From: Prosthecobacter sp.
GTDB lineage: Bacteria > Verrucomicrobiota > Verrucomicrobiia > Verrucomicrobiales > Verrucomicrobiaceae
DNA: 64,000 nt
Direction: 5' to 3' (one strand)
Assembly (NCBI GenBank): GCA_044378005.1
Contig: JBILYB010000011.1
Shown here: one piece after another, positions 7,490 through 51,253 of the stretch
Layout: each line of letters starts with the position of its first letter
Numbering within the stretch: the first letter of the stretch is position 1
Made by a program: the position numbers and the translations under genes
Notes under the pieces: model-generated
Told to the model about the DNA's origin: nothing
The model's database searches: none
What the model saw: the letters and a program-made list of their open reading frames with translations, nothing else

Positions 7490-8065
7490 ATGCGCATCGC
7501 CATCTATTGCGGGTCCAGTCGCGGACTCGACCCCGTCTTTCAAACCGCCGCCGCTGACCTCGCGAGGCATCTCGTCAGCCAGGGCATCGGCATCGTCTAT
7601 GGCGGCGGCAATGTCGGCCTCATGGGCGTCATCGCGGATGCGGCGATGTCCGCTGGTGGGGAGGTCATCGGCGTAATCCCCGAGTCCCTGCTGGCCAAGG
7701 AACTCGGCCACGGTGGGGTCACCGAGCTCCGCGTCGTGCGCTCCATGCATGAGCGGAAACAAATGATGGTGGACCTCAGCGATGCCTTCATCGCCCTGCC
7801 CGGTGGCTTTGGCACGCTGGATGAACTCTTCGAGACACTCACCTGGCTCCAGCTTGGCTTTCACGGCAAACCCGTCGGTCTTCTGAACGTCGCGGGCTTC
7901 TTCGATCACCTGCTCACCTTTCTCGATCACATGACGGGCACCGATTTCCTCAAGCCCGAGCACCGCGCCAGTCTGCTGATGGAGACTGATCCCGCCGCAT
8001 TGCTCACCGCCATGCAGGCCTTCCAGCCGCACACCTGCGGGAAGTGGATCAAGGAACTTGTTTGA
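7490..8065 (+). CDS. LOG family protein (TIGR00730-like)
   Basis: YCGSS, VYGGGNVGLMG, MHERK and PGGFGTLDE. Confidence 0.93.
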   Translation: MRIAIYCGSSRGLDPVFQTAAADLARHLVSQGIGIVYGGGNVGLMGVIADAAMSAGGEVIGVIPESLLAKELGHGGVTELRVVRSMHERKQMMVDLSDAFIALPGGFGTLDELFETLTWLQLGFHGKPVGLLNVAGFFDHLLTFLDHMTGTDFLKPEHRASLLMETDPAALLTAMQAFQPHTCGKWIKELV

Positions 8066-8213
8066 AACTCCGGCGACTAAATGTCGCAGAACTCAAAAGC
8101 TTCAGAGCAAAACGGGCGCTTTTAGGTGGGCAGCATTTCTCGTTTCATCGAATCCAGACTTACCTACAGCTTGCCGGAGGGGGGTGGAGGTTTCAGGGTG
8201 GCGGGTGCCGACC

Positions 8214-11039
8214 ATGACTTGCCGCTTTCTTCCGACCTTCTCCGTTTTCTTTGCTCTGGCGTCTGCTGCGCTGATGGGGGCGGACTTCCCTGCCCTCTAC
8301 AATTCCGATCCCGGTGATGCGCAGCCGCCGACGCCGCAGGAGTCCCTGAAGATGCTGAAGCTGCCGCCGGGCTTCAAAGCGACACTCTTTGCAGCGGAGC
8401 CGGACGTGCAGAATCCCATCGCCATGGCCTGGGATGCCAAGGGGCGGATGTGGGTGGCGGAGAACTACACTTACGCAGAGCGGCAGAAGCGCTTCGATCT
8501 GGGGCTGAAGGACCGGGTCATCATCCTGGAGGACAAGGACTGGGACGGCGTGGCGGAGACGCGGAAGGTTTTCACGGAAGAGGTGCAGATGCTGACCAGC
8601 GTGGAGGTCGGGCGCGGCGGCGTGTGGCTGATGTGCCCGCCGCAGGTGCTCTTCATCCCAGATCGCAATGGCGATGACATCCCGGATGGCGAACCCGAGG
8701 TGGTGCTGGATGGCTTCACGGTGGCGAAGGACAACTACCACAATTTCGCTAACGGCCTGCGCTGGGGCCCGGACGGCTGGCTCTACGGTCGATGCGGGCA
8801 CTCCTGCCCCGGACGACTCGGTGTGCCCGGCACGCCGGACGAGCAACGCATCCCGATGAAGGGCGGCATCTGGCGCTTTCATCCCGAGCGGAAGATCGTC
8901 GAGGTGCTGACGCACGGCACCACGAATCCCTGGGGCCATGATTGGGATGAAAACGGCGAGATGTTCTTCATCAACACCGTCACCGGCCATCTCTGGCACC
9001 TCATCCCCGGTGCTCATCTCATGGACTCCAGCACGCTGAATCCGCTCGTGTATGAAAAGCTCGATACCATCGCCGATCACTACCACTACGACCGCAGCGG
9101 GAGCTGGACGGAATCCCGCGATGGCAAGGCCAACAGCCTCGGCGGCGGCCACGCCCACATCGGCATGATGATCTATCAGGGTGACCAATGGCCCGAGCAG
9201 TATCGCAACAAGCTTTTCACCCTGAACATGCACGGTCGCCGTGCGAATGTGGAGCGCCTCGAACGCAACGGCAGCGGCTACGTCGGCAAACATGAGCCCG
9301 ATGTCTTCCTCACCGACGATCCTTGGTTCCGTGGCATCGAAATCAGCACCGGCCCCGACGGCAGCGGTTTTATTTTGGACTGGAGCGACACGGGAGAGTG
9401 CCACGAAAGCACCGGCGTACATCGGACGAGCGGGAGGATTTTCAGGATCAGCTATGGGGAGGTGAAGAAGCTGGAGAAGCCCTTTGCTTGGCGGAAGCCT
9501 TTGCCAAAGCCTGACTTCAAGGGCGATGAGCATCAGCGTGTGCTGGCAATCCGTGAGATGACGCAGTTTTGGCCGATGGATACCATTGAAGGTAGATGTC
9601 AGAATCTAGGATTCAAATGGGCGGCAAGCCCGGAGGTTCCTCGACTGATTGACTTGGCCCGCACCGAAAAATCCAGCTTCGTCCACCTCACACTCGCCAG
9701 CACGCTCCAACGGCTGCCGTTGAGTCGCCGCCCCGAACTCGCCATCGAGCTTCTGAAGCACGCGGAGTATGCCGACGACCCCTTCCTGCCGCACATGGTC
9801 TGGTTTGGCATCAGCCCGCTGGCGAAGCATGACCCGGCAGCGCTGGTGAAGATCGCCCAGCATTGCTCCTGGCCGAAGACGCTGAAGTGGATCGCGCGCA
9901 GTCTCGCCACGCAGCCGGAGCATCTGAATGCGCTGCTGACAAGCGCGAAGCCTGAGCAGGCGGCGAACATCCTGGAAGGGATGTCGGAGGCCTTCAAAGG
10001 TCTGCGCAAGGTGCCGAAGCCGGAGGCTTGGGAGGCGTTCGTAGTTCGGGCTTCAGCCCGTGCTGGGAGTGCCGAAGAACGGGCTGAAGCCCGAACTACG
10101 AACTCAATCCGCGACCTCTCCATCCTCTTCGGCGATGGCCGCGCGCTCGATGACGTGAAGAAGATCGTGCTGGATGCCCAGGCGGAGACTCCCACCCGCG
10201 AGGCGGCTTTGAAGACGCTGATCGAGGCCCGTCCCGCCGACCTGCGCGCCGTTTGTGAAGGCCTGCTCGACGTGCGTGGCCTGAACGTCACCGCCGTGCG
10301 CGGGCTGACGCTCTTTGATGACCCAGCCATCGGCCAAAGACTGGCGAAGGATTACCGCAAGTTCGCCCCCGCCGACCGCCCCGCCGTGCTGGACGCGCTC
10401 GTCTCTCGCCCCACTTGGGCCGCTGCGATGCTGGAGAGTGTGGGCAAGGGCCAGATCACCCGCACGGAGGTGACCGCCTTTCATGCCCGGCAGATTCGCG
10501 GCTACAATGATGAAGCTCTCTCGAAGAAGCTCACCGAAGTCTGGGGCGAACTGCGCGAGTCCGCCGCTGATAAGAAGGAATTGATCGAGAAGCTCAAGAA
10601 ACAGCTCGATGCGCCCACTTTGGCGAAAGCCAACCTCAGCCAGGGGCGCATGCTTTTCACCGCCGTCTGCGGTGCCTGTCATGTCATGTACGGTCAGGGC
10701 GGGAAGCTCGGGCCCGACCTCACGGGCAGCGGGCGGGCGAACATCGACTACCTCCTGGAAAACATCGCCGACCCCAGCGGCGTGGTGCGTGCGGACTTCC
10801 GCATGAGCCTGCTCACCCTCAAAGATGGCCGCAGTCTGAGTGGCGTCATCGCTGAAACCACGGACAAAACCCTGACCCTCCGTACCTTGACCGAAACCCT
10901 GACCCTTGAGCGTGCTGAGATCACGAAAACCGAGACCTCCCCCATGTCGATGATGCCGGAAGGCCTGCTTCTTGCTTTTCAGCCGGAGCAGATCCGCGAC
11001 CTCATCGCCTACCTCATGCACCCGGTGCAGGTGAAGTGA
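8214..11039 (+). CDS. PVC-type heme-binding CxxCH membrane-associated dehydrogenase-like protein
   Basis: Signal peptide, propeller motifs (FAAEPDVQNPIAMAWD, NGLRWGPDGWLY), HEAT-like region and C-terminal CGACH...GPDLT. Start is ATG 8214. Confidence 0.9.
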   Translation: MTCRFLPTFSVFFALASAALMGADFPALYNSDPGDAQPPTPQESLKMLKLPPGFKATLFAAEPDVQNPIAMAWDAKGRMWVAENYTYAERQKRFDLGLKDRVIILEDKDWDGVAETRKVFTEEVQMLTSVEVGRGGVWLMCPPQVLFIPDRNGDDIPDGEPEVVLDGFTVAKDNYHNFANGLRWGPDGWLYGRCGHSCPGRLGVPGTPDEQRIPMKGGIWRFHPERKIVEVLTHGTTNPWGHDWDENGEMFFINTVTGHLWHLIPGAHLMDSSTLNPLVYEKLDTIADHYHYDRSGSWTESRDGKANSLGGGHAHIGMMIYQGDQWPEQYRNKLFTLNMHGRRANVERLERNGSGYVGKHEPDVFLTDDPWFRGIEISTGPDGSGFILDWSDTGECHESTGVHRTSGRIFRISYGEVKKLEKPFAWRKPLPKPDFKGDEHQRVLAIREMTQFWPMDTIEGRCQNLGFKWAASPEVPRLIDLARTEKSSFVHLTLASTLQRLPLSRRPELAIELLKHAEYADDPFLPHMVWFGISPLAKHDPAALVKIAQHCSWPKTLKWIARSLATQPEHLNALLTSAKPEQAANILEGMSEAFKGLRKVPKPEAWEAFVVRASARAGSAEERAEARTTNSIRDLSILFGDGRALDDVKKIVLDAQAETPTREAALKTLIEARPADLRAVCEGLLDVRGLNVTAVRGLTLFDDPAIGQRLAKDYRKFAPADRPAVLDALVSRPTWAAAMLESVGKGQITRTEVTAFHARQIRGYNDEALSKKLTEVWGELRESAADKKELIEKLKKQLDAPTLAKANLSQGRMLFTAVCGACHVMYGQGGKLGPDLTGSGRANIDYLLENIADPSGVVRADFRMSLLTLKDGRSLSGVIAETTDKTLTLRTLTETLTLERAEITKTETSPMSMMPEGLLLAFQPEQIRDLIAYLMHPVQVK
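10037..10103. repeat. GTAG-type REP inverted pair inside a CDS
   Basis: Perfect 24-bp inverted repeat GTTCGTAGTTCGGGCTTCAGCCCG (10037-10060) and its reverse complement (10080-10103), with a 19-nt spacer. Each arm has the internal hairpin CGGGCT-TC-AGCCCG. Confidence 0.85.
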
Positions 11040-30742: not shown

Positions 30743-31888
30743 GTGTTTCGAAGACTTTTCGGCCCGAAAAGTGATCGCCCGACACCACCTAAAGGACAAA
30801 TTGAGGTGGTGTGTCCGACCTGTGGCGCGGCTCAGTTTGAGCCGCGCCTTGTTGTTTCCACTTTTTGCAAAAAGTGTGGCGTCCATCTCTCCATCACCCG
30901 TGGCAAAGTCTCTGCTTCGGGAGTGAGCCGCGCAGGTGGCAAAATCGATAACAGTGCCTGGGATACCCCGGCTCCGGCGAAGGAACCAACCAGCCAGCCC
31001 ACAGCTCAGGTGCCTCAAACCAGCAGGCGAACACTCACACCGATCAACGCTGCCCACGCCGAGCCAGAGCAGCTCGAGTTCGCGAAGCCCATTTCTCAAG
31101 AAGAAGAGGCCGAGGGTGGTTTCGGGGTCTTCCTCAAACAGCAGGCAGCATCCAGCCCAGAGCCTTTGCCAGCAGCCCAAGTGCCTGAAGTCATCACCGA
31201 AGCACCACCTGAGCCCAGGGTGCTGGAAGCTCCGGTAGCGCGCCGTCCGCAATCCAACTCCCCGCCGCCCACCCCTGCACCGGAGCCCATGTCCGCCAGC
31301 ACGCTGCAAAAAATGCGGGACCAGGGCGTCTATCGAAACGCCTACTTCAAAGACGCGGACTGTTTTGAATGCGGTCATAAATTCAAAGTTAGCCGTTCCT
31401 CCCGCTCCGCCAACTGCCCCCATTGCGGCTCTCTCATCTCCCTCGAAGACATTGAGATCAACATGGCCACCAATCAGGCTATCAAAACGCGTGGAGATGT
31501 CCTCATCCGCAAGCGCGGCCATCTCTCCACCGATCTCATCATCTGCCGGGACATCCGCTGCCAGGGCATCGTCGAGGCCAATATCCAAGCCAGCGGTGAT
31601 GCCGTCTTTCGCACCGTCGGAAACATCATTGGCGAGGTACACTGCAAACGCTTCATCATCGAAAAAGGAGCGGATGTTACCTTCCTAAACCTCATCCATG
31701 CCGAGGAGACAGACATCCAGGCCAAGATCACTGGCACCATCCTTTGCACCGGCCCCCTAACCATCGGCAAAGATGGTGCCGTCTTTGGCGATGTCACCGC
31801 CCGCTCGATCAATATCGAACCCGGCGGCGAACTCAACGGTGCCATGAACATTGTGCGCACCCAGACCATGCCCAGGCCGGCGATTTAG
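30743..31888 (+). CDS. Bactofilin-domain protein with two zinc ribbons
   Basis: CPTC/CKKC and CFEC/CPHC pairs, a Pro-rich linker, and C-terminal bactofilin repeats ending 'IEPGGELNGAMNI'. Confidence 0.85.
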   Translation: MFRRLFGPKSDRPTPPKGQIEVVCPTCGAAQFEPRLVVSTFCKKCGVHLSITRGKVSASGVSRAGGKIDNSAWDTPAPAKEPTSQPTAQVPQTSRRTLTPINAAHAEPEQLEFAKPISQEEEAEGGFGVFLKQQAASSPEPLPAAQVPEVITEAPPEPRVLEAPVARRPQSNSPPPTPAPEPMSASTLQKMRDQGVYRNAYFKDADCFECGHKFKVSRSSRSANCPHCGSLISLEDIEINMATNQAIKTRGDVLIRKRGHLSTDLIICRDIRCQGIVEANIQASGDAVFRTVGNIIGEVHCKRFIIEKGADVTFLNLIHAEETDIQAKITGTILCTGPLTIGKDGAVFGDVTARSINIEPGGELNGAMNIVRTQTMPRPAI

Positions 31889-50710: not shown

Positions 50711-51253
50711 TTAACCCGCCGGAGGAGGCGCGGGAGGCGTCGGCGACTCTTCCTCACCACCGCCGCCCGTGCTCATCACATGACCGGCGATCTTCCAGGC
50801 ACCCAGTACCGTCGGGTCATTGCGGAAGCGGTTCTTGATGACGGCATCCAGGCATTTCACCATGTCCGCGCCCTGCTTCAGCAGACCGGGCAGCGACGCC
50901 GTCGCGCCGCCCTGCCCCTGGAGGGCACCGCCCTGGGAGCTTTCCGCCTCCTGCACATCCAGCGCTTCAGCATTTAGATCCGCCACAATGTCGCCGTCAT
51001 AACCATGCTCGGTGAAATCGGCGGCCAGATTCAGCTCCGTGATCGCCGTGGCAAAGGCCTGACCGGCGGCCACCAGCAGCGTATCATTCGCCAGCGGCGG
51101 CACCGGAGTTTTTGTGCTTCGGGTGTCCTTCGAGGATTGTCTCGCCCTTTCAGGGCACCGAGCTTTTGGGGCCGCGTTACCCAGGGCGTTGCCCTGGGCT
51201 GAGTTGTTTCGCCCCTTTGGGGCTTGGGCATTTGGCTTCGCGGGTTTCGTCAC
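50711..51253 (-). CDS. Hypothetical protein with a REP-derived N-terminal segment
   Basis: GTG start with an upstream GGAGG. The C-terminal half looks helical and conserved ('LDAVIKNRFRNDPTVLGAWKIAGHV'). Confidence 0.65.
   Translation of the reverse strand: MTKPAKPNAQAPKGRNNSAQGNALGNAAPKARCPERARQSSKDTRSTKTPVPPLANDTLLVAAGQAFATAITELNLAADFTEHGYDGDIVADLNAEALDVQEAESSQGGALQGQGGATASLPGLLKQGADMVKCLDAVIKNRFRNDPTVLGAWKIAGHVMSTGGGGEEESPTPPAPPPAG
51144..51223. repeat. Three-hairpin REP-like element
   Basis: GCCCT-TTC-AGGGC (51144-51156), CCCAGGGC-GTT-GCCCTGGG (51180-51198) and GCCCC-TTT-GGGGC (51211-51223). Confidence 0.8.

Follow-up and report, generated by a model that had tools for sequence, protein, structure and literature searches.

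Short palindromic repeats that carry a terminal GTAG tag, the inverted dimers of such repetitive extragenic palindromes (REPs) known as REPINs (REP doublets forming hairpins), and the repeat-flanked genes of REP-associated tyrosine transposases (RAYTs) have been well described (Nunvar et al. 2010, PMC2817692; Bertels & Rainey 2011, PMC3116915). Passages of Di Nocera et al. 2013 (BMC Genomics 14:522, PMC3733652) describe GTAG REPs "entirely located within ORFs" (open reading frames), give 20-30 residues as the length encoded by intragenic REP dimers, propose flexible linkers or loops as their location, and report intragenic GTAG REPs to be most numerous in the verrucomicrobium Opitutus terrae. 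Here we analyze a stretch of 64,000 nucleotides (nt) from Prosthecobacter sp. (GenBank assembly GCA_044378005.1, source genome G000; contig JBILYB010000011.1), referred to throughout as the window, in which a gene for a haem-binding protein of the PVC (Planctomycetes-Verrucomicrobia-Chlamydiae) type contains an in-frame doublet of GTAG-tagged repeats. We conclude, with a probability of roughly 0.85, that this feature is a non-autonomous GTAG-tagged REP doublet, i.e., a REPIN, of a family specific to Prosthecobacter-like Verrucomicrobiaceae, that it is mobilized in trans by a RAYT, and that it is translated within a linker of its host protein. This is a new family of a known phenomenon, and it extends what was known in 2013 from Opitutus terrae and others and overturns nothing.

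The window family resembles published GTAG REPs and REPINs in its short G+C hairpin with a terminal GTAG, in its inverted "HH" dimers with a spacer, in having a single repeat-flanked RAYT gene, and in being inherited mostly vertically within its lineage, and it differs from them in consensus and in host genus. The peptides VVRASAR, GLKPEL and ERAEARTT are absent from the intragenic REP list as given in the searched passages of PMC3733652, and the same passages hold no mention of a random-like intragenic share (63% vs 57%), of the occupation of single linkers by multiple families across a bacterial family, of an identical site in scattered paralogues, or of arm-versus-codon conservation. There is also a likeness to the REP and bacterial interspersed mosaic element (BIME) system of E. 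coli and its transposase TnpA-REP (4ER8), in that the units consist of GTAG and a hairpin, occur as inverted pairs, and are accompanied by a RAYT that aligns over the HUH motif and the catalytic Tyr.

In-frame palindromic elements in protein genes are best represented by the Rickettsia palindromic elements (RPEs; Ogata et al. 2000, Science 290:347, as cited in passages of PMC3184786 and PMC3733652). Both RPEs and the window family are palindromic selfish DNA lying in frame in functional genes, where they would be translated as surface or loop segments, and both have genic as well as intergenic copies; RPEs are, according to passages of PMC3184786, approximately 105-146 nt long and found in reduced intracellular genomes, whereas the window family measures 46-97 nt, is G+C-rich and GTAG-tagged, and has an identifiable RAYT. 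We saw no sequence relationship between the two, and we class the window family as RPE-like in behavior, i.e., in its in-frame insertion, but not as a member of the RPEs. RPEs are A+T-rich, and we know of no transposase for RPE-1. Passages of PMC3184786 (with Delihas 2007 and Croucher 2011) also describe enterobacterial, pneumococcal and other small repeats with open frames that are fused internally or terminally to coding sequences. Open frames and fusion to coding sequence are likewise seen in the window family. The enterobacterial and pneumococcal repeats are MITE-like (miniature inverted-repeat transposable element) or terminator-like, measure about 100-170 nt, mostly extend gene ends, and do not represent dimers of RAYT-associated REPs placed in internal linkers.

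The host gene in the window (Table 1) lies in an ORF spanning 8058..11039 (+), with a recorded product, P0003, of 941 amino acids (aa) that starts at 8214. This ORF is a real gene; it matches the Pfam domains DUF7133 (E=1.8e-69) and Cytochrom_C, its product has 2363 homologues under names such as "PVC-type heme-binding CxxCH protein" and "membrane-bound dehydrogenase-like", and orthologues with 76-87% identity are present in at least 14 genomes of the genus. A preliminary description of this DNA had reported a REP pair inside a 2.8-kb heme-protein gene with the frame unbroken, and our analysis confirms this: the pair lies within the stop-free, domain-bearing ORF, codon TTC starts at 10038, no stop occurs across the element, and the translation runs ...PEAWEA-FVVRASARAGSAEERAEARTTN-SIRDLSILFGDG..., with a 22-residue insert that can be parsed as FVVRASAR-AGSAEE-RAEARTTN. 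The two arms of 28 nt each are 96% complementary and lie 11 nt apart, and they contain a perfect stretch of 25 nt (GTTCGTAGTTCGGGCTTCAGCCCGT), so that the perfect inverted repeat of about 24 bp with GTAG ends and internal hairpins given in the preliminary description is essentially right. The GTAG and CTAC ends point outward, each arm forms its own small hairpin with a 5-bp stem, and the 20-mer GTAGTTCGGGCTTCAGCCCG is found in the window only at the two arm positions (0 expected, 100 shuffles). The RNA of positions 10022-10118 is predicted to fold as one long hairpin (-65.8 kcal/mol, z = -9.1 vs shuffles), which agrees with the strong mRNA hairpin that had been proposed; the pausing, processing or stability signal suggested along with it stands at the level of this predicted structure.

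Table 1. Features of the element and its host gene in the window, the associated transposase gene, and the other host proteins in G000. Positions are those of the window unless a contig (C) is given.
Feature	Position	Strand	Description
Host gene, 941-aa PVC-type haem-binding protein	8214..11039	+	Signal peptide, DUF7133 beta-propeller-like domain, helical-repeat region, C-terminal CxxCH cytochrome c
GTAG-REP doublet (REPIN-like element)	10037..10103	.	67 nt; codons 10038-10103 = FVVRASARAGSAEERAEARTTN
Left arm	10037..10064	+	Extended end GTTC, GTAG 10041-10044, hairpin CGGGC-TTCA-GCCCG 10047-10060; read (F)VVRASAR
Spacer centre	10065..10075	+	Forms the apical loop of the long hairpin; varies within the family; read within AGSAEE
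Right arm	10076..10103	+	Hairpin CGGGC-TGAA-GCCCG 10080-10093, CTAC 10096-10099, extended end GAAC; read ERAEARTTN
RAYT gene	G000 C67:66084-66635 (L169/L183)		184 codons; found in a 676-nt gap between two element copies
Host: HsdM methylase of a type I restriction-modification system	C143		Element inside the N6_Mtase domain span (Pfam)
Host: alpha-2-macroglobulin			Pfam
Hosts: three PSCyt1/PSCyt2/PSD1 proteins			Pfam
Hosts: four further PSD1 carriers			tblastn with the PSD1 domain; one (C88) with a weak NCBIfam match only
Hosts: three DUF7133/cytochrome c proteins, the window's own included			Pfam
Host: DMFA2_C protein			Pfam

Our survey of G000 (a fragmented assembly of 6.75 Mb in 337 contigs, 60% G+C) and of 41 genomes of relatives, 25 of them of the genus, demonstrated that the element belongs to a repeat family. 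The unit consists of GTAG, TTC and a 5-bp G+C stem with a TT(C/T)A loop, and in the doublet two inverted units, with GTAG outside, enclose a variable spacer. G000 contains 20 exact and 48 near half-sites (at most 3 mismatches), and a search with a degenerate pattern returned 44 half-sites vs 0 with a reversed-pattern control; the half-sites form 19 inverted doublets of 46-97 nt in addition to a few solo or tandem units. The arms are near-identical between these copies, extending to GTTCGTAG...CTACGAAC, and the spacers vary both in sequence and in length (6-57 nt). In a set of 166 half-sites picked by the anchor without the stem, stem pair 3 is G-C in 132, C-G in 31 and something else in 3, and stem pair 1 is G-C in 160 and C-G in 4; since the stem pairs covary, the small hairpin is under structural constraint. 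Exact half-site matches in public genomes come almost only from assemblies of Prosthecobacter, Verrucomicrobiaceae and Brevifollis. Within the genus, 16 of the 25 genomes contain half-sites (1-65 each), a GGAG variant is present in one genome of another family of the same order, and the reversed-pattern control gave 0 across the relatives except for one genome with a single match. The family is small for REPs, those of E. coli being essentially extragenic and far more numerous.

The preliminary description had predicted that the motif would be present in many copies together with a RAYT gene. Both are found in G000, with 44 half-sites and 19 doublets on the one hand and a RAYT-type gene on contig C67 on the other, the latter flanked by a composite element to its left (65918-66072) and a doublet to its right (66691-66769), so that the association of the element with a RAYT is upheld. 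The C67 protein contains an HUH motif (LPNHYHL) and a tyrosine motif (VNYIHHNPVRHGYV), matches the NCBIfam model NF047646, "REP-associated tyrosine transposase" (E=3.9e-21, 75.5 bits), and has as its sole match in the PDB the E. coli TnpA-REP 4ER8, a weak match (E=0.01) in which HYH aligns with HMH and YLHHNPVRHGYV with YIYINPVKHGWV. Intact orthologues with 81-91% identity are present in four other genomes, where they are likewise flanked by the element (L117, L104, L075 and G019), and a relative with 53% identity in G035 is flanked by the GGAG variant. The highest half-site counts (30, 44 and 65) are those of the three genomes with a RAYT orthologue of at least 84% identity, and across the 41 genomes the presence of this RAYT clade is associated with that of at least 5 half-sites (Fisher p=3e-4; Spearman rho=0.72). 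The Pfam model PF01797 (Y1_Tnp) missed the C67 gene, and the seven genes that it does detect above cut-off in G000 were rejected as cognate, each being flanked by other, distinct repeats. We propose that the cognate HUH/Y1 RAYT, with its own gene bounded by the element, would mobilize the family in trans on single-stranded DNA, and that the insert would be tolerated because the linker is flexible and hypervariable. Copies that persist in genes keep the frame of their host, and the element is therefore read as peptide (here as 22 residues).

The same ends could be those of a MITE of a DDE transposon, e.g., an IS630/Tc1-like element with a TA duplication (gTA/GTTCGGGC...GCCCGAAC/TAc), rather than of a RAYT substrate. 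Terminal inverted repeats, and a TA at both ends just inside G...C, are features such an element would have. However, the bases outside the TA (GTTCG...CGAAC) are conserved within the palindrome in both genic and intergenic copies, and the TA is therefore probably not a target duplication. In addition, solo and tandem half-sites occur, as they do with REPs, and the only gene that we found bounded by the element, in five genomes, is the Y1/HUH RAYT, although DDE transposases with such ends were not searched for systematically. We regard a DDE origin as very unlikely.

REPs had been described as normally extragenic, which does not hold for the window family. With intragenic defined as an open frame of at least 100 codons on each side of the doublet, 12 of the 19 doublets in G000 (63%) are intragenic, compared with 57% of random 59-nt windows, and among 54 non-redundant doublets of the other genomes 21 are intragenic, 25 are not, and 8 are undecidable. 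The family thus departs from the extragenic location that forms part of the definition of REPs; since exceptions have been published (PMC3733652), this departure is compatible with membership. The eight hosts scanned with Pfam all carry domains. In 11 of the 12 intragenic copies in G000 the left arm is read VVRASAR, or VVRPSGR in the covarying variant, and the copy exits as NGLKPELQ(T) or ERAEARTT(N), as set by the length of the spacer; the remaining copy is read RSSGFSP...ERAEARTT. The preference for the VVRASAR phase (11/12) is not safe as a statistical result, since copies that share a paralogous site may be non-independent. In each arm one of the three frames is closed, by a TAG (left arm) or a TGA (right arm), and the other two are free of stops. 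None of the 12 copies breaks the frame of its host despite this stop in one frame per arm, which argues, on genomic evidence, that intragenic copies are decoded rather than skipped.

This reading pattern bears on two other explanations. The first, by analogy alone with the GC-rich palindromic "byps" of yeast mitochondria, is that the message loses the element, or the ribosome passes over it, so that it never becomes peptide. The 12 intragenic copies in G000 and the 21 in other genomes all lack stops and leave the host frame intact, and the exit frame always matches even though lengths vary (46-74 nt and more); such constraints would be unexpected if the sequence were not decoded, and we give a bypass element almost no credence. 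The second is that the repeat is a protein-level module, i.e., a conserved peptide, with the DNA palindrome incidental. The peptides VVRASAR and GLKPELQ do recur in many proteins, as this would require, but spacer length decides which of two frames (GLKPELQ or ERAEARTT) is used in the right arm, and SSGFSP is an occasional reading of the left arm; this frame usage already refutes the module. Further, about 40-50% of the copies are intergenic, changes are compensatory at the DNA level (VVRASAR to VVRPSGR via G-C to C-G), and copies flank a transposase gene; a peptide module can be given next to no weight.

A translated REP is also supported by comparison of the linker with that of orthologues, which are highly variable between the anchors "KPEAWxxF" and "IRDLSILFGDG". 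Our linker census covered 110 cluster representatives with recognizable anchors, of which 47 have a short linker of 9-13 aa without an element (e.g., VASSSKSPL, FAVLAKGQTNL), compared with 22-23 aa where the element is present. The window element family is intact in 10 of the 110 and present as remnants in 26, often in tandem with a second REP family (…ERAKARTTYPEPAKAGTT…); the second family occurs alone in 11 (VVPALAG…PAKAGTT), a third family in 5 (…PPKGGTPN), and a fourth in 4 (FRSLALQSR…). About half of the orthologues therefore hold REP-derived peptides at this one linker, from four REP families. Together with the multi-copy family and the flanked RAYT, the longer linker relative to element-free orthologues supports the reading of the inverted pair as a REP that would be translated. 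One element-free linker, FAVLAKGQTNL, was considered as a collapsed single hairpin; its nucleotide identity to GTAGTTCGGGCTGAAGCCCGAACTAC is approximately 63% by a count made by eye, which is suggestive and not demonstrable.

An AlphaFold2 model of the host protein (70 sequences, mean pLDDT [predicted local distance difference test] 68.7) gives the helical-repeat region a pLDDT of 80-97 and places the insert at the end of a helix (606-614), in a loop (617-624, pLDDT <50), and at the start of a further helix (622-638). On this model the insert site is a hypervariable inter-helix linker that separates the helical-repeat region from the remainder of the protein, a better term than the "surface loop" proposed previously. 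Of the insertion of about 20 aa in such a loop that had been predicted, the longer linker and the position at the inter-helix loop of lowest confidence in the helical-repeat domain are borne out, and a clean 20-aa addition is not, because the site is a hypervariable linker with REPs of several families throughout the genus.

Variable occupation is not confined to the window's gene. Among HsdM orthologues with 83-89% identity the loop that holds the element varies, the shortest form having 5 residues vs 23 in G000. In orthologues of the C202 protein the linker after "LVKYLQS" is occupied by the window family, by a heterodimer formed from two REP variants, by solo units or by decayed copies, and in distant orthologues by a Gly/Ala/Ser linker. 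We also observed that the HsdM loop, between YHAWR and Y(T/A)D(I/V)PGF, has a different in-frame insert in each genome (L171, L173-L175, L177); the insert in G035 (L177, G035:C73, about 1765-2130) is a further, unrelated palindromic element, ACGCAAAGCCGCAAAG…CTTTGCGCCTTTGCGT, and that in G039 is a short repeat of the GAAAACT type. The heterodimer of the C202 orthologues (L195 = G015:C7; L198, L199, L204) is in frame and reads GTAGTCCCGCCTTCAGGCGG … CCGGCTAAAGCCGGGACTAC, with a solo unit read GPAKAGTT as the alternative form.

Copies of the window family also recur at identical sites. The C150 paralogue of the window's gene contains a 74-nt copy at the homologous linker, and in 7 of 61 PSD1 paralogues the element occupies exactly the same site between TYRQSS and DPxNRLL, a stretch that in paralogues lacking it is a linker of 7-11 aa (e.g., KVTPALLER). 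The 7 carriers are dispersed over the tree of these 61 paralogues and require 7 changes, at least 4 of them forced by well-supported branches, and a single ancestral PSD1 insertion followed by gene duplication was rejected on these grounds. The PSD1 copy on C95 has its most similar spacer in HsdM on C143, with TTCTGGAAGCGC common to both, and not in the other PSD1 copies, which disfavors gene conversion from paralogue to paralogue as the sole route and points to movement between unrelated genes. The candidate explanations for recurrence at the same linkers are targeting, e.g., to the remnants of older REPs, or nothing more than a strong filter for tolerated sites. The PSD1 (DUF1553) domain has about 61 paralogues in G000, and two of the element-free ones contain decayed-looking copies, SSQFSVRSAQLDP in C11:95560 and SSQFSVPGSQLS in C207.

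Comparison of orthologous copies allowed the age of these insertions to be examined. Between G000 and the metagenomic orthologues L192/L193, the arms are identical at 42/42 positions and the spacers at 15-16/18, with 63-78% identity at third codon positions of the flanks; between G000 and L014/L105, the corresponding values are 40/42 for the arms, 9-10/18 for the spacer, and 44-51% for third positions, with 73-87% for second positions. At three PSD1 sites, orthologous copies with flanks of 79-84% identity have arms identical at 37-40/40 and spacers at 5-13/18, and at the C202a and C239 sites the spacers are identical at 6/6 and 26/37 positions. Spacers diverge among orthologues at approximately the rate of third codon positions, and the spacer is thus roughly neutral, vertically inherited sequence. 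The insertion at the window site is old, as it is common, with a spacer that is recognizably related, to orthologues whose synonymous sites are diverged from 22-37% to saturation, and the conservation of its arms exceeds anything explained by coding for a variable linker.

A number of observations weigh against our conclusion that the element is a RAYT-mobilized, translated REPIN. The score of the C67 RAYT (75.5 bits) is just under the NF047646 cut-off of 80, and the protein has no Pfam match. In G000 its gene contains a single in-frame TAG (…SVADR*IRNEAH…) where the four orthologues have CAG (Gln); this could be an assembly error, given the fragmented assembly, or, as the RAYT carries this premature stop, the family may now be immobile in G000 with 44 half-sites remaining. 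Three genomes have 7-13 half-sites and no RAYT of this clade, as expected of fossil copies. A clean empty site was not found at the three hosts checked (HsdM, the C202 FG-GAP/DUF7133 protein and the window's gene), where the linkers are hypervariable and contain other REP families or remnants, and this makes the ends given for the element, and the manner of its insertion, provisional. Both translation and mobilization are deduced from genomic sequence. The comparison of arms is partly ascertained, in that copies were found through their arms; even so, arms identical at 42/42 next to synonymous sites with about 70% identity cannot be chance. Lastly, the conservation of arms at orthologous sites departs from simple parasitic decay, a departure for which host-level selection or function, short-tract gene conversion among the approximately 40 half-sites, and action of the RAYT are candidate causes.

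The first of these causes leads to an explanation in which the arms are kept for the host, either as an intragenic RNA hairpin (for ribosome pausing during domain folding, RNase III processing or mRNA stability) or as a DNA site bound by gyrase or a nucleoid protein, with the REP origin secondary. At orthologous sites the arms outdo even the flanking second codon positions in conservation while the spacer drifts, the hairpin is predicted to be very stable (as given above for the window), and the same inter-domain linkers are filled in many paralogues and orthologues, all of which would suit a host function. Set against this, the hosts are functionally unrelated, intergenic copies have the same arms, and concerted evolution among the half-sites could equally keep the arms alike; moreover, as 47 of the 110 alignable orthologues are without any REP at the site and others have decayed copies or other families, no single structure is required at this linker. 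We consider a host function of this kind improbable. A further reading, unlikely and to be taken as a tentative proposal, is that intragenic REP arms are actively maintained, by host-level selection or by RAYT- or recombination-driven homogenizing, and that insertion is targeted at certain inter-domain linkers, possibly at the remnants of older REPs. If this were true, the REPIN-RAYT system would be a long-lived, site-focused generator of linker diversity in large, secreted, multidomain PVC proteins, not randomly landing, tolerated junk.

The REPIN interpretation preferred here would make the window family a clean, quantified case of a REPIN-RAYT family that is not extragenic and has copies that appear to be decoded as protein. 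For annotation, this means that such inserts are not frameshifts or assembly errors, and the family bears both on the part played by selfish DNA in the evolution of protein linkers and on what keeps REPINs intact over long times.

Our search of G000 also identified many parallel REP-RAYT systems. At least seven more Y1_Tnp/RAYT-like genes are present, on C324, C25, C143, C316, C33, C94 and C69 (L001-L007), each with its own distinct repeat; for example, the C94 gene has GGCACTTGCCAAGTGCC hairpins on both sides. On C324 (~30912-30950), immediately behind the stop codon of another RAYT-like gene, there is a hairpin, TCGGGCTTTCAGCCC, that resembles the stem-loop of the window family with one additional T; the resemblance may be due to chance. 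The window itself also contains a second REP family, unrelated to the first, at 51130-51250 (- strand), at the 5' end of a minus-strand ORF, with the core CCCAGGGCAACGCCCTGGG and adjoining GCCCnnnnGGGC hairpins, and this core is also found on both flanks of a RAYT-like gene with a TAA at C143:3419-3760 of G000.

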